Below are positions 13,913 to 64,000 of a DNA stretch of 64,000 bases, piece by piece. The notes under the pieces were generated by a model that was not told the origin of the DNA, ran no database searches, and saw nothing but the letters and a program-made list of their open reading frames with translations. The DNA is from Eledone cirrhosa (Eukaryota): NCBI GenBank assembly GCA_964016885.1, contig OZ024762.1:11408001-11472000 (forward strand), given 5' to 3'. The number at the start of each line of letters is the position of its first letter. Positions within the stretch are counted from its first letter, which is position 1. A program made the position numbers and the translations under genes.

Positions 13913-16369
13913 TCAAGTGGCACCACGTACAACTATCACAACCAAATAATCATCTTTAATCGGCTCAGCAGGCAGTTTAGGGGCACAGCCGAGAAGAAAG
14001 TTGTACCCAAATTGACATGGAGGGAATGCATGCAAAACTCCAACGTTTTCTTTATCCTTCGAAGGGTTGGGTGGTAATGAAATCACACCAGCGGCCTCTT
14101 TTTGTTTTAGATAGCTAACTAAATTTTTTAATGGTCTCTGTTGGATCTGTCCCACTTCGTAATTTGGTAAAGTACTGGGTAGAGCTAATAGAATACAGTG
14201 GCCGTGTGAACCGGAGGAAGTGACCCGTCTGCCAACCTCGTCTAATTTCGGCTGGTCAAGCCTTAGTCTCTGAGTAATACGAAGTACTGAGGTTTCTGTG
14301 GTGGTTGTATCTCTCATCAATGTATCAACTATGGTCACATCACCACTGACAACATGCATACGCGCTAAAAACGCACTGTTCTTCAATATAAGAGCACCAT
14401 TCCAAGCAACAGGTAAGCACTTTGCCAAATCTACTAAATTGTTCACATGCTCGGCCACGCTGAGTTCTTTCTCTGTAGGGGGGCGGGCTTTTTTGTTTAT
14501 CTCTAAACTTCTGTCGGATGCCGTTAACTCCTGCGGTAGTTTCATGTCCGGTTTGTTTTGCTCGCGGAATTCATTTTCTCTAGTAGCTGCACGGTAAATA
14601 TCAGGCCGTTCCTGACTGAGGGATCTGTATCTTTTTTGATACTCGTCGGTCGGGGAACGTCCGCCTATCCTCTTGCGTCGATCGCCACCATGAAGACTGA
14701 CGGCTCGCTCCATCACTTCTATTCGATTGCTGCTGCCTCTGTGTTCAAAATCGCGTGGGTTATCGGGATTTCGAAATACATTAATGGGATCAGCCTCAAC
14801 CTGATGCCAGGGATCACGAGGCCGGGCCTTGTCGGATACATGGGAATCGGTGAAGCCGTCAGTCCGTCTCTGGTCGCTACAGCCATAAGAAGTATTAGTA
14901 AAATCTCTTATATGATCCGTGTTATCGTATTTGCCATCAACAGACGGCGACGCAAAGGGAATATGATTAGAATCAGAAAAGTCTACCCTTAAAGAGAAGT
15001 CTTTCTCCCCGAAAGGGTTACGCCTCATTTCTTGAAAGGCCGCCTTTGCGGCATCTTTACTGTCATATAAAACATAAGCATGTGGTTTACCGGGTGGCCA
15101 TACAATACATTTTATAGCTCCAAAACGGTCAAATTCGCGATATAAAGTCTGATAGTTGATCCAAGGGCCGAGCCCTCCCACCCACAAACATGTAGTGGGA
15201 GTCACTTTACCATAACCAATCCTGCATTGAAACTTACCTATGTGCTTACCTGACATTTCAATCTTGGCTCTATGTGCACAATCCAAATTTATAAATTTAA
15301 CAAAAGCATAAGGATTACCCTGACCTCTCTGTTGTCTTTTAATGTCGATATCTTCAACAACTCCGAAGTGTTCGAAGTGTCTCCGTAACTCCGCTTCTGA
15401 AACACTGTGATCAAGGTTTCCGACGAACAAAGTCCGAGTGGCCTTCTCCTCGGTTTCCGGAGAAGGATGCCGCTGGTTCACCGGGTTCTTTTCGATGTTC
15501 CCGTGCCGTGCATCTGCATAAAGGTATTCCCTCTCCCTCGGTAAATCTCGGATAGGGTTTACGTTGCGACCAGCTCTTCGCCCAGCAACCAAAGGTAGCC
15601 CGGGGGGGATGCTTCTGTTGGCAAATCTGTCGGAAACGGCGAGGATGGCCGGCGCTCCAGGCCTTGGGATGTAGTCTGCTGCATTAGATGGACTGTTACT
15701 CCGACGACGATTGTTTAAAACTGGTTCCACGCGTATTGGTCGGTCAAAAAGAATCAAATTATTGGACTTGTCGTGTCTAGCCGCCCGTGCATCTTCAGGG
15801 TAGCGGAAATTCACATAAGCTACCATCTGGTCGCCGACAAAAGATAGCCGGATGTTAAAAACTCCAAAGCGTTCAAATTCACAATATAATCTGTCAACTA
15901 AATCGGTTTCTGTAATCTTGGGATTAAGGTTACTAATACATAATGACCGGTATGGTTCTTGGATTGTAGCTGGTGGCGCTCTGTTGTCTGCTGTCGATCG
16001 AGAGGATGACGAAGATGAAGAATTGTGACTATAATCACCGCTGCCTCCGACTCTATCATCTCGATATGGTTTCCTGGAATGTTCCACATCGTGGTCGTAT
16101 GATGGTCGATAAGATTTCCCAGCTACACCACCTCGGTTAGAATTTGTCGAAGCTCCTGCCGGAAGGATCTTAGAAGTTACAACAGCACTACTACTGCTAC
16201 TAACAGAACCAGCACAACCAGTTGTGCTAGTACTAACGGTAGTACGGCCATCGCGACGATCCATGTCTGGGCTTAATATATTCCTGTTTAAATCATGATC
16301 ACTTGTTCCATAGCTGCTTCTTAGACGCTTGCTACGAGGTGAGACGTCTCTGTCTTGCTGTCGTTTCAT
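13913..16369 (-). CDS. RBM15: RNA-binding protein 15 / spenito (SPEN family, m6A writer-complex adaptor), 818 aa, uninterrupted ORF
   Basis: Three RRMs (YRSLCISNL...AYVNF; TRTLFVGNL...AFVKF; TTCLWVGGL...AYVLY) and a C-terminal SPOC domain (AWNGALILKNS...LRITQRLRLDQPKLDEV...LVSYLKQKEAAGVISLP...YLVVIVVRG). The ORF track starts at a TTG (16408); the first in-frame ATG is 16369 (MKRQQDRD). Confidence 0.95.
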   Translation of the reverse strand: MKRQQDRDVSPRSKRLRSSYGTSDHDLNRNILSPDMDRRDGRTTVSTSTTGCAGSVSSSSSAVVTSKILPAGASTNSNRGGVAGKSYRPSYDHDVEHSRKPYRDDRVGGSGDYSHNSSSSSSSRSTADNRAPPATIQEPYRSLCISNLNPKITETDLVDRLYCEFERFGVFNIRLSFVGDQMVAYVNFRYPEDARAARHDKSNNLILFDRPIRVEPVLNNRRRSNSPSNAADYIPRPGAPAILAVSDRFANRSIPPGLPLVAGRRAGRNVNPIRDLPREREYLYADARHGNIEKNPVNQRHPSPETEEKATRTLFVGNLDHSVSEAELRRHFEHFGVVEDIDIKRQQRGQGNPYAFVKFINLDCAHRAKIEMSGKHIGKFQCRIGYGKVTPTTCLWVGGLGPWINYQTLYREFDRFGAIKCIVWPPGKPHAYVLYDSKDAAKAAFQEMRRNPFGEKDFSLRVDFSDSNHIPFASPSVDGKYDNTDHIRDFTNTSYGCSDQRRTDGFTDSHVSDKARPRDPWHQVEADPINVFRNPDNPRDFEHRGSSNRIEVMERAVSLHGGDRRKRIGGRSPTDEYQKRYRSLSQERPDIYRAATRENEFREQNKPDMKLPQELTASDRSLEINKKARPPTEKELSVAEHVNNLVDLAKCLPVAWNGALILKNSAFLARMHVVSGDVTIVDTLMRDTTTTETSVLRITQRLRLDQPKLDEVGRRVTSSGSHGHCILLALPSTLPNYEVGQIQQRPLKNLVSYLKQKEAAGVISLPPNPSKDKENVGVLHAFPPCQFGYNFLLGCAPKLPAEPIKDDYLVVIVVRGAT

Positions 16370-16455
16370 CACTTGCAGGCGAGAAGATGGAAAAATAATG
16401 AATGGCAACGTTTGTAATTCATCTATTCTTTTACTGTCAACTGAATGGCCGCCAT
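16369..16455 (-). other. Two tandem upstream ORFs in the putative RBM15 5' UTR
   Basis: uORF1 16455-16423 encodes MAAIQLTVKE*. uORF2 16422-16369 encodes MNYKRCHSLFFHLLACK*, and its TGA overlaps the main ATG (TGATG). Confidence 0.5.
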
Positions 16456-16459
16456 CTTG
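16448..16459 (-). promoter_or_regulatory. YY1/Pho-type motif CAAGATGGCGGC in the RBM15 5' region
   Basis: Plus strand gccgccatcttg, an exact match to the canonical YY1 consensus, about 80 bp upstream of the ATG. This motif is typical just downstream of housekeeping-gene TSSs. Confidence 0.6.
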
Positions 16460-16894
16460 TCTACTACCTACCTTACTGTGGAACGCAGTGCAAACGCCCA
16501 GATATTCGCAATTGCTTAAAAATCGAAAAATAAAGCCATATTTAGAAATTAATCCACGAAAATATAGTAGAATTACTAACGATGCTCATGATAAATGTAG
16601 ATAATATTTTAAATGTAAATTATACTGCAAAACATTGCGCAGTTATTAGGGAACATTTTTTTCTTCGTAATATCAATCCGCAAGGTCAGAGGTTAGCAGT
16701 GACAAGTTCCCGTTCTTTATATTCATAGTTTATTTATCTTTGTTATATTTATATATTTATATATATATATAAATTTATATACATATATAAATTTATATAT
16801 ATATTTATTTATATATATATATAAAAATTTATTTGTATATATATAAATATAAATTTATACATTCATACGTACACAAGCACAAATAAAAATGTGA

Positions 16895-49600: not shown

Positions 49601-52600
49601 AAAAGTAGTCAAGGGGAGATAACCAAAATAAGTCGTATGCCATGAACTGTCGTCTGTAGAGTTGTACTGAACCAGTTTAAAACTCCTTAAAACTATTAAT
49701 AACATACATTAGCAGCAATTCTATTGACGGGAAAAGCTGGAATATTAATAGTTGATTGTTTGAGTCTCGATGGTTTTACAATTTACCCTTGGATTAGAAG
49801 TAGATACCCCATATAACACATCACTGTCAGTGACTCTTTTGTCTTTTCCCCCACATCCGAGATTAACAAAATAAACGACAGAAATAAAATATTTTATAAA
49901 ACTACCGCAGAATTATAATTATTTTTACCTATATAAAATTATTTGATGTTACCCACAATGGTAGAAATATATACTCTCCTAATTTACCAGTTTTATGACG
50001 AGTCACACTCGATTGAAGTGGGATTAATTCATCTTGGAAACATACACAAACACACATATATATTTATATAAAAGCTGTTGTTTAAGCAGGGGTCAGGTCT
50101 ACATTTATACATTTTTGTATATAGCGTAGTATTTCGTCAAACAGATATCGATAAGAAATAATATATTTAAATAAATACTACCATCAATATGTTAGCCGAA
50201 ACATTTAAACAAGCTGTCCCCTGTATGACCGGAGACCTATTGAATGACTGAAATAAAATCTGTGAAAGATCTCATTTATTTTTAATGTAATTGTTTATTT
50301 GCTTCGTTTAAAATATGTCTATGGTACTAAAACATAACTGCATCTCCCCACCTTTAAACATTAAAAACATGAAAATTAGAAGAACCTTAGAGTTCCCCCC
50401 CAAATACTCGGTCTCGCTTTTACTAAGGATCTCTCATGTCTAACGTACATTTAGTAAACATGGCTGTAACTTCTTTAAACAGACTGCCTCTTCTCTTCAA
50501 CATAGTTGGAGAAGGATTAAATTTAGTTCAAAGAAAATATAAGAAAATTGTTTATATTTAACAATAGAAGCAAAATAATAATTTAATGGAGTGGGAAGGG
50601 TGATAAACAGACGAGGATGGGGACTTCGTGATTTTCCAGACAAGCTGGTACACACAAACATATATATATATATACACGTACTTATATACATATTATATAC
50701 AAACATGTACTACATACATATATATTATATACATCATGTACTACATACATATATATTATATACATCATGTACTATATACATATATATATATATATATATA
50801 TACATGTACTACACACACACATATATATATTATATACGTACATATATATATTATATACATATAAGTACTACGTATTTATATATTATATACATATAATATA
50901 TACTACGTGTATATATGTAATATATATATATATAATGTCCTTGCCTAATATATACATATTTCAGTGTGCCCTTGTCAAGAAATCGAACACGCCCCGCTGG
51001 GGGTGCAACAGATATACAAAATAAACGACTAAGCTCGAATGAGCTGAGAGGAAAAGCTGGTCAATAAAATAGAAATGCGTGTGTGCAAACATTTTCAGAA
51101 GAACCTAATCAAGGGGAGGTAACCAGAGTTGTATGCATGGGTGTATGTATAGTGTGTGACAGTATATATGCGCGTGCGCGTTATTAGAGTTTGGCTGTTG
51201 CAGCGGCCAGATCTAAGCTATTCTCTTTTTAACAAATCTTTTCAAACAGTTTTGGTCTGTCTGGATCTTCAAGTTATTTCAGTGGCAACATACTCTTGTT
51301 GTTAGTCTACCTGCCAACCATACAACTGATGTTAACTGAACTTGCTCTGTGTACAAGAAGTACCTGATCAGTTGAACATATTTCCAGTGGACATAGCTTG
51401 CATAGAACTACCCCGACATCTTGACCATGAAAAATGTCCTTAGTGTGACATATGGAATAACAAGACTAACAAATTCTTTGGCCTCAGGGTTATTTTTTTT
51501 TTTTTTTCCTGAGCTGACCATATCCTAGATTAATTACCATAACCAAACTATAGAGCCTAGTCTACCCTATGAATCAAAGATATCGCATAGTACCACCATA
51601 TTACGGCGACCCTCAGAAATAAGAGATATAGTATTATATAAGATTTATAAAATAATGATATTTAATATAATAATAATAATAATATAGAATATATTTATAA
51701 AAGTAAGAAAGAAAATGAAATAAATGATAAAAATAAATAAATAAACATTTATTTGAAATTTTCTTTATATACAAGCGATATATAGAGACAGATATAAACG
51801 TATACATATGTGTGTTTGTGTACAAGAATCGAACGTGCTTCCCTTGATTTGTAACGTACGAGTAATTAAACGACGAAGCCCGGATGTGTTGAGAGAAAAA
51901 CTGGGCATTGGAAGAGAAATGCGTGTGTGCAGATATTCGGGTCAAAAGTAGTCAAGGGGAGATAACCAAAATAAGTCGTATGCCATGAACTGTCGTCTGT
52001 AGAGTTGTACTGGACCAGTTTAAAGCTCCTTGAAACTAATCATAACATACATTAGCAGCAATGCTTGGGATGGAAAAGTTGGAATATTAATAGTTGATTG
52101 TTTGAGTCTCGATGGTTTTACAATTTACCCTTGGATTAGAAGTAGATACCCCATATAACACACCACTGTCAGTGGCTCTTTTGTCTTTTACCCCACATCC
52201 GAGATTAACAAAATAAACGAAAGAAATAAAATATTTTATAAAACAACCGCAAGGATTATAATTATTTTTACCTATATAAAATTATTTAATGTTACCCACA
52301 ATGGTAAAAATATATACTCTCCTAATTTACCAGTTTTATGACGAGTCACACTCGATTGAAGTGGGATTAATTCATCTTTGCAACATACACAAACACACAT
52401 GTACTTATATAGAAGCTGTTTAAGCAGGAGTCAGGTCTACATTTATACAATTTTGTATATAGCGTAGTATTTCGTCAAACAGATATCGATAAGAAATAAT
52501 ATATTTAAATAAATACTACCATCAATATGTTAGCAGAAACATTTAAACAAGCTGTCCCCTGTATGACCGGAGACTTATTGAATGACTGAAAAAAAATCTG

Positions 52601-53005
52601 TGAAAGATCTCATTTATTTTTAATGTAATTGTTTATTTGCTAGGTTTAAAATATGTCTATGGTACTAAAACATAACTGCATCTCTCCAGCTTTAAACATT
52701 AAAAACATGAAAATTAGAAGAACCTTAGAGTTCCCCCCAAATACTCGGTCTCACTTTTACTGAGGATCTCTCATGTCTAACGTACATTTAGTAAACATGG
52801 CTGTAACTTCTTTAAACAGACTGGCTCTTTTCTTCAACATAGTTGGAGAAGGATTAAATTTAGTTCAAAGAAAATATAAGAAAATTGTTTATATTTAACA
52901 ATAGAAGCAAAATAATAATTTAATGGAGTGGGAAGGGTGATAAACAGACGTGGGGAAACTTCGTGATTTTCCACTACTAATTTTTCAGACAAGCTGGTAC
53001 ACACA

Positions 53006-53074
<69 letters not shown>

Positions 53075-53446
53075 GTACTTGTGTATATATATACACGTAC
53101 TTATATATATATATATACACGTACTTATATACATATATATATATACACGTACTTATATACATATATATATATACACGTACTTATATACATATATATACAC
53201 GTACTTATATACATATATATACACGTACTTATATACATATATATACACACGTACTTATATACATATATATACACACGTACTTATATACATATTATATACA
53301 AACAAGTACTACATAGATATAGATATTATATACATCATGTACTACATACATATATATATTATATACATCATGTACTACATACATATATACATATATATAC
53401 ATGTACTACACACATATATATATTATATACATATAATATATATTAC

Positions 53447-53491
<45 letters not shown>

Positions 53492-54216
53492 GTCCTTGCC
53501 TAATATATACATATTTCAGTGTGCTCTTGTCAAGAAATCGAACACGCTCCGCTGGGGGTGCCACAGATATTACAAAATGAACGATTAAGCTCGAATAAGC
53601 TGAGAGGAAAAAGCTGTTGAATAAAATAGAAATGCGTGTGTGCAAACATTTTCATAAGAACCTAATCAAGGGGAGGTAACCAGAGTTGTATGCATGGGTG
53701 TATGTATGGTGTGTGACAGTATATATGCGCGTGCGCGTTATTAGAGTTTGGCTGTTGCAGCGGCCAGATCTAAGCTATTCCCTTTTTAACAAATCTTTTC
53801 AAAGAGTTTTGGTCTGTCTGGATCTTCAAGTTATTTCAGTGGCAACATACTCTTGTTGTTAGTCTACCTGCCAACCATACAACTGATGTTAACTGAACTT
53901 ACTCTGTGTACAAGAAGTACCTGATCAGTTGAACATATTTCCAGTGGACATAGATTGCATAGAACTACCCCCACATCTTGACCATGAAAAATGTCCTTGG
54001 TGTGACATATGGAATAACAAGACTAAGGAATTCTTTGGTCTCAGGGTTATTTTTTTTTTTTTTTTTCCCAGAGCTGACCATATCCTAGATTAATTACCAT
54101 AACCAAACTATAGAGCCTAGTCTACCCTATGAATCAAAGATATTGCATAGTACCACCATATTACGGGGACCCTCAGAAATAAGAGATATAGTATTATATA
54201 AGATTTATAAAATAAT

Positions 54217-54397
54217 TGTTTCTCCGTTAGGCACAAGGCCAGCAATCACTCAGTGTATTACTGGTACTTTATTTTATCGACACCGTAAGGATGAAAGGCA
54301 AAGTTAACCTCGGCGGGATTTGAACGCAGAATGGCAAGGGCCGTAACTCTATGCGCCAAAGCATGGCACCCGACACTCTACCAATACTGCCAATCCA
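54217..54397 (-). mobile_element. Full-length tRNA-derived SINE in the last B block
   Basis: Minus strand carries an A-box-like tggcagtattgg and a B-box gcgttcaaatcc; TSD AAAATAAT at 54209-54216 and 54398-54405. Confidence 0.85.
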
Positions 54398-55160
54398 AAA
54401 ATAATGATATTTAATATAATAATAATATACAATATATTTATAAAAGTAAGAAAGAAAATGAAATAAATGATAAAAATAAATAAATAAACATTTATTTGAA
54501 ATTTTCTTTATATACAAGCGATATATAGAGAGAGATAGAGACAGATACATATGTGTGTATATGTAAAAGAATCGAACGTGCTTCCCTTGATTTGTAACGT
54601 CCGAGTAATTAAACGACGAAGCCCGGATGTGTTGAGAGAAAAACTGGGCATTGGAAGAGAAATGCGTGTGTGCAGATATTTGGGTCAAAAGTAGTCAAGG
54701 GGAGATAACCAAAATAAGTCGTATGCCATGAACTGTCGTCTGTAGACTTGTACTGAACCAGTTTAAAACTCCTTAAAACTAATAATAACATACATTAGCA
54801 GCAATTCTATGGATTGGAAAAGCTGGAATATTAATAGTTGATTGTTTGAGTCTCGATGGTTTTACAATTTACCCTTGGATTAGAAGTAGATACCCCATAT
54901 AACACACCACTGTCAGTGACTCTTTTGTCTTTTTCCCCCACATCCAAGAATAACAAAATAAACGACAGAAATAAAATATTTTATAAAACTACCGCAGAAT
55001 TATAATTATTTATACCTATATAAAAGTATTTGATGTTAACCACAATGGTAAAAATATATACCCTCGTAATTTACCAGTTTTATGACGAGTCACACTCGAT
55101 TGTACAGAGAGCACCCACAGACATGCATACACACACGCGTGTAAACTCATTCACACACAA

Positions 55161-55234
<74 letters not shown>

Positions 55235-55236
<2 letters not shown>

Positions 55237-55475
55237 TTATTAAAATAACAGATTAAAGTTTAAGCAAAGAATCGCTGCTTCCACCCTTAACCGGATCTTC
55301 TGAAACTCCCGTTAAGTTTCAGAAGATCCCGTCAAGGGTGAAAGCAGCGATTCTTTGCTTAAACTTTAATCTGTTATTTCAATAAATATTTGCTCTACGG
55401 TTCTTATATATTTGATATATATTTATCCTTATCGAGCCCTCTTCGGATTTTAGTCTTCAAATTTATTATTATTAT

Positions 55476-55479
<4 letters not shown>
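55235..55479. mobile_element. Palindromic Penelope-like terminal fragment with a hammerhead-like motif, inside (TA)n
   Basis: ~73 bp inverted arms (55235-55307 / 55315-55387) with a 7 bp spacer; the right arm extends about 90 bp further. Plus-strand hammerhead fold at 55314-55366. Confidence 0.65.
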
Positions 55480-55517
<38 letters not shown>

Positions 55518-55527
55518 ATGTATATAT

Positions 55528-56189
55528 ATGGCATAGGTTAAGAATAACGTCCTCGAAATTGAAACTAGGTTTTCTGACAAGTGAATGTGTCTGTTTGTTT
55601 TTTTACAATGAAATTTACGATACACTCTTTGTTTATTTACAACAGGTCTCTATAGTGATATGGTGTTAATTAGTATTGCGTGTGTGATTATTTTCTCTTA
55701 TATATATATGTGTGGGTGTGTATATGTGTGTATATATATGTGTGTCTGTATGTATATATATATGTGTGTTTGTATATATATGTGTGTTTGTGTCATCATC
55801 ATCGTTTAGATGTTTTTACCCAAATCCCTTATCATTCTCTGTCCTTCTTATGACCCGGCCTTAATTTGTTTATAGTTGGTGCCAACTTTGGCAAGATATT
55901 ACAAAAACATCTAAATGATGATGATGACACAAACACATATATACAAACACACATATATATATACAGACAGACGCATATATATACACACATATACACACCC
56001 ACACACATATATATATATAAGAGAAAATAATCACACACGCAATACTAATTAACACCATATCACTATAGAGACCTGTTGTAAATAAACAAAGAGTGTATCG
56101 TAAATTTCATTGTAAAAAAAAAAAAAAACACATTCACTTGTCAGAAAACCTAGTTTCAATTTCGAGGACGTTATTCTTAACCTATGCCT
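55528..56189. repeat. Long foldback: ~290 bp near-perfect inverted arms with an ~85 bp spacer
   Basis: ggcataggttaagaataacgtcctcgaaattg...tttagatgttttt (55528-55817) mirrored by aaaaacatctaaa...cgaggacgttattcttaacctatgcc (55903-56188). Confidence 0.9.
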
Positions 56190-56689
56190 ATATATATATA
56201 TATATATATATATTCAGAGAGACTGTTGTTTAACCAGGGATCAGCTCTGCGTATCGAAGATGATAAATGTACACAGTATCCTTCAGTACGGTTTTTTTTT
56301 AGGAAGATTTGGCTGCTATTTCTAGGGAAAGTACCTATGCGATCCTCTCAACAAACTAGAAATAGCAGACAATTCTTCCTAAAAAATAAATACCCAAATG
56401 TCTTTAAATACATATAAAAGATAACTCATGAAACTTACTTTGGATGTATTCCGTCACAACAGCACATTCAACTTCCCAGCATCTTGTATAGGCAAAGGTA
56501 AGTAGGTATATCCATTTATAAATGTCTATATATATATATATAGCAGTTCAAAATCCGATAATCCAGAGGCTGGTTAATCCATGGTAATCCGTATCCTAGG
56601 TAATTATGCATAAATGAAACAAACTCAGGTATGGAAAAATATTAGGTTCACGCTTGGAAGAGTGTTTGAGTTTTAACAGGCTAATCGTT

Positions 56690-56935
56690 TAATATATGTA
56701 TTTGGTACTTAGACATCACTGCATCTCTCCAACTTAGGAGATGATCCTCGGATTTCCCTCCAAATACTCGGCCTCACTTTCACTAAGGATCTCTCGTGAA
56801 ACGTACATTATTAAACATGGCTGTAACTGCTTTTAACAGACTGGCTCTTCCCTACAACTTAGTTAGATAAGGATTAAATTATGTCCAAGACAAATAGAAG
56901 AAAACGATTTATATAGGAATGTTGGGACTTCCCGC
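56690..56935 (+). repeat. Diverged paralogue of the central part of array block C
   Basis: actgcatctctcca...ccaaatactcggcctcactttcactaaggatctctc...aaacatggctgtaact...aaggattaaatt aligns by eye with 23335-23660. Confidence 0.8.
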
Positions 56936-57032
56936 TACTGATTTCTTTTAGGTAAGCTAACATTGCCACCGGTGATATGGAGGCTAAATCGCGGAATAAC
57001 CAAGTATCTTCACTAGGAGCATCAACTGATAC

Positions 57033-57118
<86 letters not shown>

Positions 57119-57186
57119 GGGCACAGTATACAGAGAATGCGTACGTGTGTATATGTAATTATGGTGCTGCTGGCATGATGAATTGC

Positions 57187-57612
57187 TCCCAGTACAATCG
57201 AGTGTGGCCCGTCATAAAACGGATAATTGTGTAAGTGTTTATTTTTCTCATTGTGATTTCTATCAAGTAATTTTATTTGGGTTAAAGATAATGATTTTGT
57301 TGTAGTTTATTTTGTTTATCTCGGATGTTGGGAAAAGACAAGAGAGTCATTGACAGTGGTATGTTCTATGGGATATCTACCTCTAACACAAGGGTAAATT
57401 GTAAAACCATCAGGTCTATAACAATCAACTATTAATATTCCAGCTTTTTCATTTCATAGAATTGCTGCTAATGTATGTTATTATTAGTTTTAAGGAGTTT
57501 TAAACTGGTTCTGTACAACTCAACAGACGACAGTTGACTACATAAGACTTATTTTGGTTATCTCCCCTTGACTACATTTGAACCAAATATCTGCACACAC
57601 GCATTTATCTTC
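57187..57612 (-). repeat. Diverged inverted paralogue of the B/C junction element ('family X')
   Basis: The reverse complement matches 22605-23048 (aaatgcgtgtgtgcagatatttgg...tcaaggggagataacc...ttttatgacgggccacactcgattg). Confidence 0.85.
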
Positions 57613-57764
57613 TAATATTGTGTTTTATGTATTAAATAATAAATTCATTATATATGATGTCAGGTATATAATATAAAAGGTCATTATTATGACATCTTTT
57701 ATTATTTGCAACCTATAGTGAACACTGCACCTGAGCACTGTACACAATAATTTCATTATTATTA

Positions 57765-57858
57765 TAACTTTGCCTTTCATCCTTACGGGGTCGATAAAAT
57801 AAAGTACCAGTAATTCACTGAGTAATTGCTGGCCTTGTGCCAAAAGTAGAAACAATTA
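57765..57858 (+). mobile_element. SINE 3' fragment
   Basis: aactttgcctttcatccttacggggtcgataaaataaagtaccag...ggccttgtgccaaaagtagaaacaatta. Confidence 0.8.
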
Positions 57859-58125
57859 TTATTATTACTATACTTCAAATAGTGGACAAACGGATTAGTG
57901 TAGGAACAAAAAATAGATAAGGATATTCTTAATAGAATATTAGTCTAATGATTTTTTTTATCGCATAAATTCTTTGCAAGAAATTATTCTTATCGCTCCA
58001 TATAACGACGTAATTATCCTTGCATATGTTTCGTCCATTGCCAGAGAATGTTTTCATGAACCAAAGAACCGTCTTCCTGTTTTCCTTTGGTTGTAACGGT
58101 TTTTTTTTAAATTTACTTCTGCGTC

Positions 58126-58205
58126 TACAGATTGATTTTTCTCAGTTTCAGAAGATCCCGTAAAAGGGTGAAAGCAGCGATTCTTTGCTTAAACTTTAAT
58201 CTGTA
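58126..58205 (+). ncRNA. Candidate type I hammerhead ribozyme with a variant core
   Basis: Distal stem I TACAGATTGA/TTAATCTGTA; bulge TTTTTCTC; proximal stem I AGTTT/AAACT; core CAGAAGA; stem II T-CCC-GTAAAA-GGG-T; GAA; stem III AGCA/TGCT; NUH = CUU. Predicted cut after 58190. Confidence 0.55.
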
Positions 58206-58384
58206 CTTATAATATATATATATATGTGAAGATTAAGGCCATAATCTAGTATCTTAGAGCGTTTTATTAAATGTGTCATTACGTATATACGCCAATATAT
58301 GTATGATGGACTCTCTCGTCGTACTTCCACGTATGAGGGTTCGACAGTCTTCTCGGTTCGATTTTTTTATGGTTATACCTTAAA

Positions 58385-59355
58385 TGGCATAATGGCATTT
58401 CAGTCCAGCTGCTGATTTACACACCAGGCCACATTTATTGCAAATGACAGGATTTGGGGCAGATCAGGATGGAATATTTGATCAGATCTTGGTGTTAGAT
58501 CTTAGATCATGAAGATGAACCAGACGAGATTTTTCAAAGTTCTTTCTACCTTCATGGCGGGCAGTTCTCCATTTTCCACAGTCAGTAGCTATGGCTTCAA
58601 AAGGAGTGAGAAATATGTTCACAGATTTAAGATTGTACCTTACCTTGTCCTTTGATCTGAGTAATGGTTTGCCTACACTATGTGGACCATTATGAAGTTG
58701 ACTATACTTCAGTACCTTGGGTGTGTAGTCGTCAGTCATCAGTAAAACATGACCAGCCCATCTGAGATGGAATTGTATCGGAAATAACTCAATTCCACTG
58801 ATGTTTCAACTCGTGAAGAGACCGGCATTGGAGATTCTGTCAGAAAGTGCATAACCACAGATAGACCGAAGACAATGTTTGTGGAAGACACCGAATTTAT
58901 AAATGTGGGTACGGTAAAATGTCCATGTCTCCGAGCCATATAAGTGTTGTCAGTACCACTACATTATAAACTGCAATTTTTGTTGTCAGGAATATGCCTC
59001 TGATACTCCATAGACAATGAGGTAGTTTGCCAAAGGCGTCATTTGTTTTAGAGATGCGATTAACGATCTCATCCTCCAGAGATGCAGTGTTCTTCACCTT
59101 GCTACCAAGGTAAGTAAACAAGTCCACATACTTCAGATTCTAGCCATCAACGGTGTTGGGAACATGAGGATGCCCATGCCTTCCTTGTTTTCCTTGCCCA
59201 ACATCTTCTTGTCTGGGGGTGGGGGCTTTGTTGATGTACCACCTCAGTCTTCTTAATGCTGGTTGTTCAACCAAATACTTTGCAGGCAAGCAAGAAGCGA
59301 TTCTTCAGTTTTTATCTCTTCAAAGGATGTTGTAACAAGTGCAGCAGCATCTGCA
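58385..59355 (-). mobile_element. Decayed RTE/BovB-type LINE, 3' half
   Basis: VDLFTYLGSKV...LEDEIVNRISKTNDAFGKL..LW...GIFLTTKIAVYNVVVLTTL, then RWAGHV..MTDDYTPKVLKYSQL..G.P.LRSKDKVRYNLK, and a terminal CGLVCKSAAGLKCH zinc knuckle; frameshifted. Confidence 0.9.
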
Positions 59356-59360
59356 AGTAA

Positions 59361-59412
<52 letters not shown>

Positions 59413-59596
59413 TAACTGTGTGTCTACTCTGGGATTTTACATAACTTTAACTATTGAGTACGCTGAGATGCAACCAGTCCTAGCAGTGAAGCCCGTGCTA
59501 TTCCCGTCAACCTATATATATATATATACTCTATTGAATATACGTTTATATATATATATATATTAATTCAAAATATTAATAAATGGAGACATTCAC

Positions 59597-59658
<62 letters not shown>

Positions 59659-59663
<5 letters not shown>

Positions 59664-59885
59664 ATAATAATAAAATTGAAGACTAAAATCCAGAGAGGGT
59701 TCGATAAGGAAAATATATATCAAATATATAAGAACCGTAGAGCAAATATTTATTAAAATAACAGATTAAAGTTTAAGCAAAGAATCGCTGCTTTCACCCT
59801 TAACGGGATCTTCTGAAGATCTTCAGAAGATCCCGTTAAGGGTGAAAGCAGCGATTCTTTGCTTAAACTTTAATCTGTTATTTTA

Positions 59886-59893
<8 letters not shown>
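59659..59893. mobile_element. Second palindromic Penelope-like terminal fragment, inside (TA)n
   Basis: Perfect spacer-less 148 bp palindrome at 59746-59893 (centre 59819/59820), plus an ~87 bp extension matching the reverse complement of 55388-55479. Confidence 0.7.
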
Positions 59894-59928
<35 letters not shown>

Positions 59929-59929
59929 C

Positions 59930-59975
<46 letters not shown>

Positions 59976-60069
59976 GTATGAGGCAATAGTCTGGAATCAT
60001 ATCATTTTATTACGTCACTATATATATAAAGAGGAAAATGTGAAGTTAAGGATGATATGGGTCCTTTAT

Positions 60070-60450
60070 TAATTGAGCAGTTAAACCCATCACTAAAGGG
60101 TTGATGAAACATCGCCCCCCATGGATATACACAATCGCCAGCAACTTAAACATGTATGTATATATGCTGCGTTTTTTGTCTGTATGATGCCAATCGCTGG
60201 TGCTGGTACCACAACGAATCACTCCGGGTTCAATAAATCCAAGAGTACAAATACATTCTGTGCGTAGCCGTGGAAAATATATTTTCAATTAAGTCGGCCT
60301 CCATGAAGCATAAGGTAGACTATTTTCAAAAGAGTCACACCATCGTAAGTCAGGGTTAAGTAATCATATTGATGGCCTCTCCCTGACAGCCCCAGCGGAC
60401 AGAATGGAGAAGTCGTTTTCATGGAGGATGGTAAGGGAGATGCGCTCCGG
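60070..60450 (-). mobile_element. Probable decayed Helitron Rep-helicase fragment (Rep-Hel linker region)
   Basis: Minus-strand frames give, in order, RLLHSVR/GAV, YDYLTLTYDGV, CFMEA, PRLRTECICTLGFIEP and DSLWYQH. This resembles the Helitron pattern LLxxVxGxTSFxDLRTVDG...EA...PxxLRxLFxxILxFxxPxDPxxLWxxH. Heavily frameshifted. Confidence 0.45.
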
Positions 60451-60480
60451 GTATGAAAGGAGTTATTTTCGGGGTGTAAA

Positions 60481-60900
60481 TTTTTATATAGGTAAAAAAT
60501 ATTTATAATACTGTGGTAGTTTTATAAAACATTTTATTTCTGTCGTTTATTTTGTTAATCTCGGTTGTGGGGAAAAGACAAAAGAGTCACTGATAATAGT
60601 GTGTTCTATGGGGTTTCTCCCTCTAACACAAGGCTCTCACTAATATCTATTAATTTTCCAGCTTTTCCGATCCATAGAATTACTGCTAATGTATATTGTT
60701 ATTAGTTTTAAGGAGTTTTAAACTGGTTCAACTCAACAGATGACAGTTGACTACGCAAGACTAAAACTGATTATCTCCCCTTGACCATATTTGAACCAAA
60801 TATCAGCACACACGCATTTATCCTATGAATAGTTTTTTTCCTCTTCGTTCAACCAGGCTTTGTCGTTATTTACTTTTATGTATTAGGAAAACATGTTCGC
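60481..60900 (-). repeat. Further diverged inverted paralogue of 'family X'
   Basis: tttttatataggtaaaaa...ttttatttctgtcgtttattttgttaatctcgg...aaggagttttaaactggttc...ttatctccccttgac...gcacacacgcattt is the reverse complement of 22520-22975. Confidence 0.85.
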
Positions 60901-61210
60901 TTTATGTTCTTATACACACATCCATGCATTACTCTATATTTACTATTGTATTTTCACAGTAAAGGCTTTACCTCACATAACATTTACATTGCTCTATATA
61001 TACTATTATATTTTCACAGTAAAGGCTTTACCTCACATAATTATCTCACATAATATTGAATCTATGCGATTTTGATATTATTTATTTTGAGAACAATATA
61101 CCTTAACGTTGATATGCGCATAGGGTTAAGCTGCCTGCGGGCAAATTAGCAACTGTATACCTCTAAATCATTAGATCTATACCTCTAAATCATTAGATCT
61201 ATACCTCTAA

Positions 61211-61405
61211 CCCTTTAGCATTTACATTACTCTATATTTACTATTGTATTTTCACAGTAAAGGCTTTATCTCACATAATATTGAATCTATGAGATTTTGA
61301 TATTTATTCCGAGAACAATACCATAATGTCAGTATGAGTGGCTAGTTTGAACAGAAAGAGGTGAGAGAATTCTGGCCGGATACAGCCGGTTTAAATGCTA
61401 AAGGG
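61211..61405. mobile_element. piggyBac-type MITE flanked by CTAA/TTAA; partial copies at about 60925-61130
   Basis: CTAA|CCCTTTAGCATTTA...TAAATGCTAAAGGG|TTAA, same family as 1518-1722. Confidence 0.85.
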
Positions 61406-62084
61406 TTAAATCGTTAGATCTGTACTCCTCGCTGCACCCCCAACGCCACAGGACTTTGAAGAGATATCTGCACTAGAAAATCAAAGCAACATCTGCTTGT
61501 GCTACACACATGCAGCCTTCTCAGTACCAGTAGTCAGCTGTAAAATCATCGGTTGGTCTATCAATTGCAGATTTTTCAGTGTCTTTCTCTCAAAACAAAA
61601 CAAGTAGCAGCAGCAGTCATAGGTTTTCGCAGGTAAATAATAAATAGGTTAAATAAATAAATAAGATAAAATGAAATTTTAAAAAAAGAATTATTTAAAA
61701 ATTAAAAAATACACACATGCACACTAACAATTCCACACACTCCCACATATACATATATACACACCCACTCATTATATACGCAATAGGACAATGTCACTGG
61801 TCCGAGATCTTTAGCGTCACGCAATAATAGAGAAGACCCCTTGTACAAAGCGAAACCTCCAGTCAGTAGACACCTCTTAACCTAATATACACCCCACCCC
61901 ACTACCCCTACCCCATCCTCCTACTCCCTCCAACACCACCCTCTCTCTGTAAAGTTATGTTGGTACCACAACATCCAGTCCAAACTAAGGAGGTAGTGTA
62001 GGTGTCACGACAAAAAAAACACACAGTCCGCACTGTAATGTGGCCGTGTAGGTAACACAGTAAAAAGTTCCCAGTTCCACACTG

Positions 62085-62261
62085 TAAATGTGGTTGGTGT
62101 TAGGAATGGCATCCAGCCATAGGAAACCTGGCAGATATAGTCCTATATACGAACGATACACGGTCACTCGACCAATCTTGCCTCAAGTGGGACAATTCCT
62201 GTCTAACCCATGCTAGCGTGGAAGATAGACGTTAAACGATGATGATGATGATGATGATGAT
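62085..62261 (+). mobile_element. RTE-tailed non-autonomous retroposon 3' end
   Basis: ggttggtgttaggaatggcatccagccatag...cccatgctagcgtggaagatagacgttaaacgatgatgatg; a related reverse copy lies at 62905-63040. Confidence 0.65.
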
Positions 62262-62460
62262 ATATATACAATTTTATGTCCAATTTTTTTTATACTTGCA
62301 AGGATTACTATGGAGGAATCATGAACCCCAGATAGTTTGCCTCAAACTTCTGCTGCTGCTGCTTAATGCTGACTAAAATGTTATGGTTGGCTCATTGGTA
62401 AGTTCCTTGCTTCTTGGCAACAAACGTATGTATTGCATTTGTACTTTTATTATAGTCTAG

Positions 62461-62652
62461 GTGGATTGGCAGTGTCGGTAGTGTCAGACGCCATGCTTTA
62501 CAGCAAAATAGTTACGGCCCTTTATGATCTGAGTTCAAATCCCGCCGAGGTTAACTTTGCTTTGCCTTTCATCCTTACGGGGTTGATAAAATAAAGTACC
62601 AGTAATGTACTGGGTAATTACTGGCCTTGTGCCAAAAGTAGAAACAATTATA
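62461..62652 (+). mobile_element. Full-length tRNA-derived SINE
   Basis: A box tggcagtgtcgg, B box gagttcaaatcc, conserved core gcctttcatccttacgggg, tail agaaacaattata. Confidence 0.85.
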
Positions 62653-62659
62653 GTATATA

Positions 62660-62845
62660 TATAATTGTTTCTACTTTAGGCACAAGGCCAGCAATAACCC
62701 AGTGCATTACTGGTACTTTATTTTATCGACCCCGTAAGGATGAAAGGCAAAGTCAACCTCGGCGGGATTTGAACGCAGATTGTAAAGGGACGTAACTATG
62801 CTGGAAGGCATGGCGTCCGACCCTCTACCGATACTGCCAATCCAC
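62660..62845 (-). mobile_element. Full-length tRNA-derived SINE, tail-to-tail with the previous copy
   Basis: Reverse complement of the same family; only about 7 bp separate the two tails. Confidence 0.85.
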
Positions 62846-62866
62846 TGTATATATATATATAATGAA

Positions 62867-62907
<41 letters not shown>

Positions 62908-63094
62908 TCATCATCATCATTTTACGTCCGCTTTTTCCCTGCTTGCAAGGGTGGGACGGGAACTGATTCTGGCTTGATTTCTACAGCTGGATGCCCTTCC
63001 TAACACCAACCTCATTTTACAGTGAGTGATGGGTGCTTTTTCGCCGTGGCACCTCCACGACCACTTTGCAGTGGAATGATAGGGACCCCAGTCC

Positions 63095-63244
63095 CTATCA
63101 TCTCATTTCTACAGCTGAGTAAACTGGAGCAATGTGAAATAAAGTGTCTTGCTCAAGGAAACAACACATCACCTGGTCTGAGAATTGAACTCACAACCTT
63201 TCGATTGCAATGCCAATGCTCTAACCACTAAGACATGTGCCTCC
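63095..63244 (-). mobile_element. Different tRNA-derived SINE fragment
   Basis: agctgagtaaactggagcaatgtgaaataaagtgtcttgctcaagga...gaattgaactcacaacc...ctctaaccactaag (reverse A and B boxes). Confidence 0.65.
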
Positions 63245-63274
63245 ATATATATATATATATATATATATTTATAT

Positions 63275-63309
<35 letters not shown>

Positions 63310-63546
63310 ATATTTATATTATATATATATATTTATATTATATATATATATTATATATATATATATATATATTTACATTATATATATATATTATATATAT
63401 ATATATTTATATATATATTTATATTATATATATATATATATATATATTTATATTATATATATATATATATATATTTATATTATATATATATATATATTTA
63501 TATTATATATATATATATATTTTATATTATATATATATATATATTA

Positions 63547-63582
<36 letters not shown>
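63245..63582. repeat. Interrupted (TA)n microsatellite
   Basis: Directly visible. Confidence 0.95.
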
Positions 63583-63587
<5 letters not shown>

Positions 63588-63916
63588 ATACTTGGGGAGG
63601 GTCATATTGTTATAATAATATTGCCAGAAATAATAACAGGACACACTCACTGTTTGGTTGGTTTTCGCTTCTGTATCTTTTATATCTCCAGAGTTAATTC
63701 ATTTGGCAATCAATGTTTATCATTGACTGACCAACGGTCAAAAATACAGATATAATTATATACATATATAGTCTATCAAAGTTCTTTCGTTGCACATCTG
63801 CAACATCACCAGTGGTCCTATTATCATGTTCCCTCCTATTGTTTTGTAATGTTTACCAACCAAACAGTGAGTGTGTTCTGTTATCATAACAATATGACCC
63901 TCCCCAAGTATAACAA
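63583..63916. mobile_element. MITE-like element with ~60 bp inverted arms
   Basis: ttgttatacttggggagggtcatattgttat...ataacaggacacactcactgtttggttggt versus accaaccaaacagtgagtgtgttctgttatcataacaatatgaccctccccaagtataacaa. Confidence 0.7.
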
Positions 63917-64000
63917 CATTTGTTTCGACACACGATTACATATCAAAACCCTTGCAAAACAAAAATATATATATATATCATCATCATCATCATCATCACC

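Follow-up and report, generated by a model that had tools for sequence, protein, structure and literature searches.

The motif at positions 58126..58205 (+) of the 64-kb window, the whole stretch of DNA analysed here, is the 3′ end of a 5′-truncated Penelope-like element (PLE) of the Hydra clade, 3.26 kb long when complete, where it forms a hammerhead-type RNA whose core carries A at position 4 throughout the element family. Because this A stands where the hammerhead core has a near-universal U, any cutting is likely to be slow, and we give about an even chance to the reading that the motif is a putative slow, possibly protein-assisted self-cutter.

The 80-mer and the hammerhead register given in the original prediction were confirmed by a sequence check, as was the closure of all three helices in that register. 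The type I hammerhead-like fold, assigned from the sequence, from a position and layout that match those of the hammerheads in Hydra relatives and from cross-subfamily constraint, lies entirely on the plus strand and comprises a bulged stem I, a 3-bp stem II resting on a U·U pair and a stem III of 4-5 bp with a 9-nt loop. Distal stem I (58126-58135/58196-58205) is separated by a U-rich bulge (58136-58143) from proximal stem I (58144-58148/58191-58195), which leads into the 5′ core C3-A4-G5-A6-A7-G8-A9 (58149..58155); the non-canonical A4, recognized from the sequence and from genome counts, is position 58150. Stem II (58157-58159/58166-58168) is flanked by U 58156 and U 58169 and followed by the GAA of the core (58170-58172), and the segment 58173..58190 contains stem III (strands 58173-58176/58186-58189), with its G15.2-C16.2 pair, and then U17 at 58190. 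Three helices are therefore arranged round the core, stems II and III being closed and stem I open, which is the type I topology. Compared with the consensus core (C3 U4 G5 A6 N7 G8 A9 / G12 A13 A14 / A15.1-U16.1 / H17), the motif departs at U4 only, with G8, G12 and C3-G8 intact. Hammerhead numbering places the predicted cut after 58190.

For the 96-mer that contains the motif, folding prediction gives a minimum-energy structure other than the hammerhead (-17.0 kcal/mol vs -12.5 for the hammerhead; z -1.29). The predicted pairing probability of proximal stem I is 0.01-0.07 in four subfamily representatives and 0.01 in the flagged copy, and in all four, whether they carry A4 or U4, prediction favours competing folds. 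No Rfam hammerhead family was found among 97 matches at E<=5 in window positions 50000-64000, which consisted of hairpin and microsatellite noise, and the expectation that a standard search would miss the motif was thus borne out for Rfam.

The original prediction also held that A4 is family-wide, and this proved correct. The A4 core 16-mer has 26,142 exact matches in the genome, as opposed to 127 for its U4 counterpart (0.5%), while reversed control 16-mers gave 0 matches, with ~0.7 expected by chance in the 3.0-Gb genome. A is found at position 4 in all five subfamily consensuses, and among the 58 copies found by upstream or ORF queries only, 54 carry A4, the stretch is missing from four, and U4 was seen in none. 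Of the 127 U4 loci, the 20 examined are scattered over subfamilies and junctions and form no lineage. Since A4 is family-wide and predominates across the genome, the suggestion that the consensus is canonical and the local copies are dead mutants fails.

A canonical-core sister family in the same genome was considered in view of 1,156 relaxed-pattern U4 matches and was rejected, as 28 of the 30 matches examined were inversion junctions (24) or truncations (4), the other two being unrelated. In the 24 junctions (L244-L273; window 59746-59898) the sequence CTGA arises by mirror symmetry centred on position 4. Inversion junctions cluster at the core, where the bases flanking position 4 form a short palindrome, and near-perfect hairpin insertions may perhaps number ~900 genome-wide, as extrapolated from the 1,156 matches. 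A separate, fully canonical type I hammerhead with U4 was observed at L148:900 and L148:1320 (+), 420 bp apart, and also at L060; the L148 pair suggests another PLE or retrozyme family in the genome.

Two features initially regarded as unusual turned out to be routine in the Hydra clade. In the 26 hammerhead rows for Hydra elements in File S2 of Craig et al. (PMC8557442), U4 and C15.2-G16.2 are present in 26/26, U·U at the base of stem II in 14/26 and U17 in 9/26. Further relatives were collected as 79 metagenome loci with 37-45% protein identity; a strict-score scan returned 56 plus-strand hits, whereas three shuffled versions of the full set of 81 scanned loci gave 5, and a relaxed score placed a motif in 53/79 relative loci. 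These 53 distinct motifs comprise 51 with U4, one with C4 and one with A4, and U·U is found in 27, C15.2 in 52 and U17 in 9 of them. On these published and metagenome counts the U10.1·U11.1 mismatch (14/26 and 27/53) and the CUU cleavage site (9/26 and 9/53) are clade-typical, so the claim that either is out of the ordinary did not stand. The lone A4 relative motif, which is the lowest-scoring and lies inside an ORF, was treated as a chance match. One metagenome relative (L180:2668, +) has a C4 core ~330 nt upstream of its ORF and a second motif with U4. The canonical hammerheads of the relatives have the same layout as the motif studied here.

What is unusual, and specific to this PLE family on sequence comparison, is therefore A4 together with a swapped 15.2-16.2 pair, which is C-G in other Hydra hammerheads and G-C here. 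The canonical hammerhead has been described as universal in the Hydra clade (PMC8557442), and the A4 family is an exception to this in all five of its subfamilies. Neither a natural A4 hammerhead nor a description of this PLE family was found in the literature searched or in the supplement of Craig et al. (PMC8557442), from which two motifs of the family are absent. The accessible portions of PMC11014351 and PMC6765202 added nothing on hammerhead position 4.

A genome search with the 96-mer gave 2,635 candidates, of which 40 were scored, and placed the motif at the end of a high-copy repeat. The left truncation point varies from copy to copy, whereas the right end lies ~25-30 nt beyond the predicted cut or, in copies with a tail, ~90 bp further on; among 179 distinct 3′ contexts, (TA)n follows in 95, the tail in 64 and other DNA in 20, as is expected of an element that targets (TA)n. 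Pairs of cores on one strand, spaced by 3,259 and 3,261 bp, flank an ORF and so delimit full-length units, which read: partial pLTR with the motif, tail, ORF, 3′ region, motif, (TA)n. Partial pLTR tandems, inverted truncated arms and a one-sided optional tail were all found in 30 near-full copies, 18 regions and the window insertions, and the layout agrees with the PLE architecture described by Craig et al. (PMC8557442). The proposal that the motif is a type I hammerhead homologue in a PLE pLTR is thereby upheld, with the motif on the sense strand of the RT ORF; an ORF on the minus strand, which would make the motif antisense, was ruled out because the ORF lies on the motif's own strand.

A protein search, in which 71 of 64,289 candidates were scored, found a 713-codon open frame in 12 of the first 30 loci. 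These open frames share 96.9-98.7% identity with one intact copy, which indicates that the family was active recently. The 709-aa ORF was modelled with a pLDDT of 93 on a 109-sequence alignment, and the top Foldseek matches of the model are telomerase RTs (best E 3e-9). The ORF carries the Hydra marks given by Craig et al. (PMC8557442), namely DKT, a CxCx5C linker, CxxC and CxH, lacks CCHH, has RWR in place of RWK, and can be aligned by eye with the Hydra proteins of that study. Of the linked RT and GIY-YIG ORF that had been anticipated, the RT is thus present in longer copies as a telomerase-like enzyme, and the endonuclease is placed by motifs: VY..YIG and the motifs downstream of it align by eye with published Hydra endonucleases, and one homologue carries PF01541, while neither Pfam nor Foldseek returned a profile or fold match for a GIY-YIG domain in the protein itself. 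Nothing informative came from Pfam, queried with three ORF pieces and with 40 aligned proteins, or from a sequence search of the PDB, which is why the C-terminal endonuclease call is made from motifs. No relatives of the element were found in the viral contigs searched.

A GT..AG stretch of ~750 nt is cleanly absent from genomic copies L295 and L117 and from contigs of sequencing run X1, in keeping with the retained introns of some PLEs. Its absence from these sequences indicates that the strand bearing the motif has undergone transcription and splicing, with the motif retained afterwards. In the young subfamily (L147:3834-4578) this intron of ~750 nt lies between the ORF stop and the motif, and two neighbouring acceptors are used; the oldest subfamily lacks the young-subfamily donor and has another donor-like site instead. 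The possibility that A4 became fixed to create a CAG splice acceptor is unsupported, as the acceptors used lie ~105-110 nt upstream of the core, and none of the splice joints listed falls at the core. In the old copy L328 the ORF end is joined directly to stem I, which was taken as a single deletion because related old copies have no donor there. Runs X5 and X6, from other organism codes, cover the motif at low depth only and were set aside as evidence.

The window holds four exact cores and one near-exact core. The flagged copy (57921..58219, +; delimited by BLAST to other copies) is a 5′-truncated old-subfamily copy, a pLTR end that runs into (TA)n, with no ORF left, and is 84% identical to an old copy and 76% to a young full-length copy by BLAST. 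A short young-subfamily copy at 55315..55476 (+) contains proximal stem I, the core, the 3′ end, the ~90-bp tail and (TA)n, and the inverted arm of the same insertion (55228..55307, −) has no tail and shows point changes in stem II and GAAA; the core reported at 55314-55366 is hence present with its proximal stem I, and distal stem I is missing. Near 59820, an inverted arm with a tail (59662..59817, −) ends at the core without the 5′ strand of stem I, and a direct arm without a tail (59822..59898, +) is cut off at the core and followed by (TA)n. Cores do occur there on both strands, as had been proposed, but an inversion junction runs through them, and both arms are incomplete as hammerheads because this junction cuts the core and the 5′ strand of stem I is missing.

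Other repeats were observed in the window. Two inverted repeat pairs, 55530-55791/55927-56188 (262 nt) and 54650-54936/57330-57616 (287 nt), are 90% complementary, flank the region and probably represent additional ends of inverted retroelements. A large tandem array at 20900-49000, evident from GC periodicity and from repeated reading frames, has a unit of ~3.9-4.0 kb that is shorter near the end. An 890-aa open frame at 13913-16585 (−), apparently a host gene, contains RNA-recognition-motif-like repeats and a C-terminal domain, which we take to resemble that of RBM15/Spenito.

Constraint on the motif was assessed in 75 copies drawn from 115 that qualified, with the youngest group limited to 30; the copies represent five subfamilies and lie 2-10% from their own subfamily consensus. 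Between the consensuses, 52/147 upstream columns differ and only 9/78 motif columns do so. Within the motif, 0/55 core and stem columns and 9/23 loop and bulge columns vary (p 4e-9), all the changes falling in the stem I bulge, loop II or loop III, and the 13 unpaired core bases alone show 0/13 changes (p 0.01); these p-values overstate independence, as the subfamily consensuses form a related series. On both sides, the conserved stretch is bounded by the outer limits of distal stem I. Covariation had been put forward as a further check on the stems, but with stems invariant within the family none is observable, and no two-sided compensatory change was found in the five subfamilies.

Such conservation could in principle belong to a neutral relic and reflect homogenization of 3′ ends between subfamilies or search bias, given that 3′ ends are the commonest part of the element and could be swapped by template switching, and that the motif served as the query for some loci. 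Since some loci had been fetched with the motif and some groups labelled by loop bases, the test was repeated on 67 copies for which both retrieval and grouping relied on upstream or ORF sequence only, and the same pattern was obtained: 51/149 upstream and 8/77 motif columns differ, at the same loop and bulge positions. Moreover, subfamily-specific changes are present immediately outside distal stem I and in the loops within it, which means that the region has not been homogenized as a block. A neutral relic is accordingly considered very improbable.

As to cutting by the conserved motif, published mutagenesis predicts low activity. As far as the accessible text of PMC9901934 goes, saturation mutagenesis of a type III hammerhead left every single and double mutant of the CUGA turn with low activity and no rescue, the C3-G8 swap excepted. 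On the other hand, the accessible part of PMC6155905 identifies G8 and G12, both present here, as the catalytic bases, and Perreault et al. (2011, PMC3088659, accessible text) reported a natural U4C viroid variant that is weak in vitro and sufficient in vivo for infectivity, and found U·U to be the best-tolerated mismatch. PLE hammerheads are slow in general, according to the part of PMC4209133 available, and the anole PLE hammerhead, in the available text of PMC11167929, needs protein in order to cut, can be dispensed with for insertion in vitro and leaves no read ends at its site.

A rival reading is a hammerhead fold that is dead and kept for another role, either the binding of an element protein that positions reverse transcription or a DNA-level role in an internal promoter, and we regard this as a real possibility while leaning against it. 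Changes at U4 are strongly damaging in the accessible mutagenesis data (PMC9901934), catalytic mutants leave PLE insertion in vitro unimpaired in the available account (PMC11167929), and Naiad PLEs spread without canonical hammerheads (PMC8557442). Both 3′ ends of the copies fall just downstream of the motif, and positions for which a ribozyme has no need, namely N7 and 7/9 loop III bases, are invariant as well. Nor was a genomic footprint of cutting detected: copy starts show no excess at the predicted cut site (795, vs 735 at the neighbouring base; p 0.13) in a test that cannot detect junctions preceded by T. However, a fold retained solely for such a role does not readily account for an unpaired catalytic core with 0/13 changes in five subfamilies, nor for variation confined to positions that hammerheads tolerate, and natural position-4 variants can keep function, as described in the available part of PMC3088659.

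At the opposite extreme, the A4 hammerhead might still cut efficiently, rescued by the 15.2-16.2 swap, the bulge or the element's RT. This appears unlikely; if true, there would be an A4 subclass of hammerheads that searches by core pattern throw out, and it would have served a successful retrotransposon lineage through at least five subfamilies. A more specific proposal, that of a rewired core in which A4 is compensated by G15.2-C16.2, by U·U or by a contact between the bulge and loop II and in which cutting proceeds at a near-normal rate, is judged improbable. All subfamilies are indeed fixed for both A4 and G15.2-C16.2, the stem I bulge faces loop II in the manner of extended hammerheads, and 127 U4 copies exist, yet the 20 examined form no lineage. 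The CUGA turn, however, was without pairwise rescue in the one saturation screen, in its accessible text (PMC9901934), the bulge and loop II both vary between subfamilies without a matching pattern, and folding predictions assign greater stability to competing structures.

For the slow and possibly protein-assisted cutter that we favour, the following life cycle is inferred by analogy with PAc, the anole PLE. Tandem copies would be transcribed from the upstream repeat, and the encoded RT-endonuclease would bind the RNA near the motif structure and nick (TA)n DNA. Reverse transcription could then start at either of two sites, ~25-30 or ~120 nt past the predicted cut, giving copies without or with the tail, and residual cutting after 58190 may trim read-through transcripts. 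The template would be uncut (or re-joined) RNA, as almost every copy spans an intact motif, and for this reason weak cutting would cost little and may even help.

Comparison with known systems places the element closest to the Hydra PLEs (PMC8557442), with which it shares a putative C-terminal endonuclease, DKT, CxCx5C, CxxC and CxH, the lack of CCHH, (TA)n targets and a hammerhead that lies close to the 3′ end, has a closed stem III and often shows U·U and U17; the hammerhead of Hydra-1_cRog also has the bulged stem I. The published Hydra PLEs differ in carrying U4, C15.2-G16.2 and RWK, where this family has A4, G15.2-C16.2 and RWR, and the 3.26-kb unit with its ~750-nt intron further sets it apart from published members. 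Hydra-1_Obim, compared by eye, is distinct, with a canonical core and a different protein.

PAc, a Poseidon PLE of Anolis carolinensis (Frangieh et al. 2024, PMC11167929, accessible text), resembles the present element in its pLTR hammerhead, its AT-rich targets, its two 3′ ends that define an optional tail and its use of uncut RNA as template. In contrast, PAc has a canonical core for which protein-helped cutting was shown, whereas the activity of the A4 core is putative; its ORF starts inside the hammerhead, whereas here the ATG lies ~200 nt downstream and the tail is ~90 bp. The natural core variants in the available text of Perreault et al. (2011, PMC3088659), namely the U4C viroid, U3-A8, A6C and U10.1·U11.1, are single departures from the 13-base core, as here, and include no A4 variant. 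They are maintained biologically but are rare single elements, while A4 is fixed in tens of thousands of copies. The minimal PLE hammerheads of Cervera and De la Pena (2014, PMC4209133, available part) likewise lie in PLE terminal repeats, mostly as truncated solo or inverted copies, and low activity is expected of them as of the motif. Unlike the motif, however, they have no stable stem III, need dimers and keep G10.1-C11.1; the motif is a predicted monomer, given its stem III of 4-5 bp with a non-palindromic loop.

The A4 family constitutes a natural experiment: tens of thousands of copies, some of them young and with an intact ORF, bear a change at an 'essential' core base, and the remaining core positions and every stem stay fixed. 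It bears on a hammerhead that has been called universal in the Hydra clade, although cutting is dispensable for PLE insertion in vitro. If the A4 motif cuts, the hammerhead core would be more flexible than current descriptors permit, and searches are overlooking A4 motifs; if no cutting takes place, selection would be keeping the hammerhead shape for another job, most plausibly protein binding.
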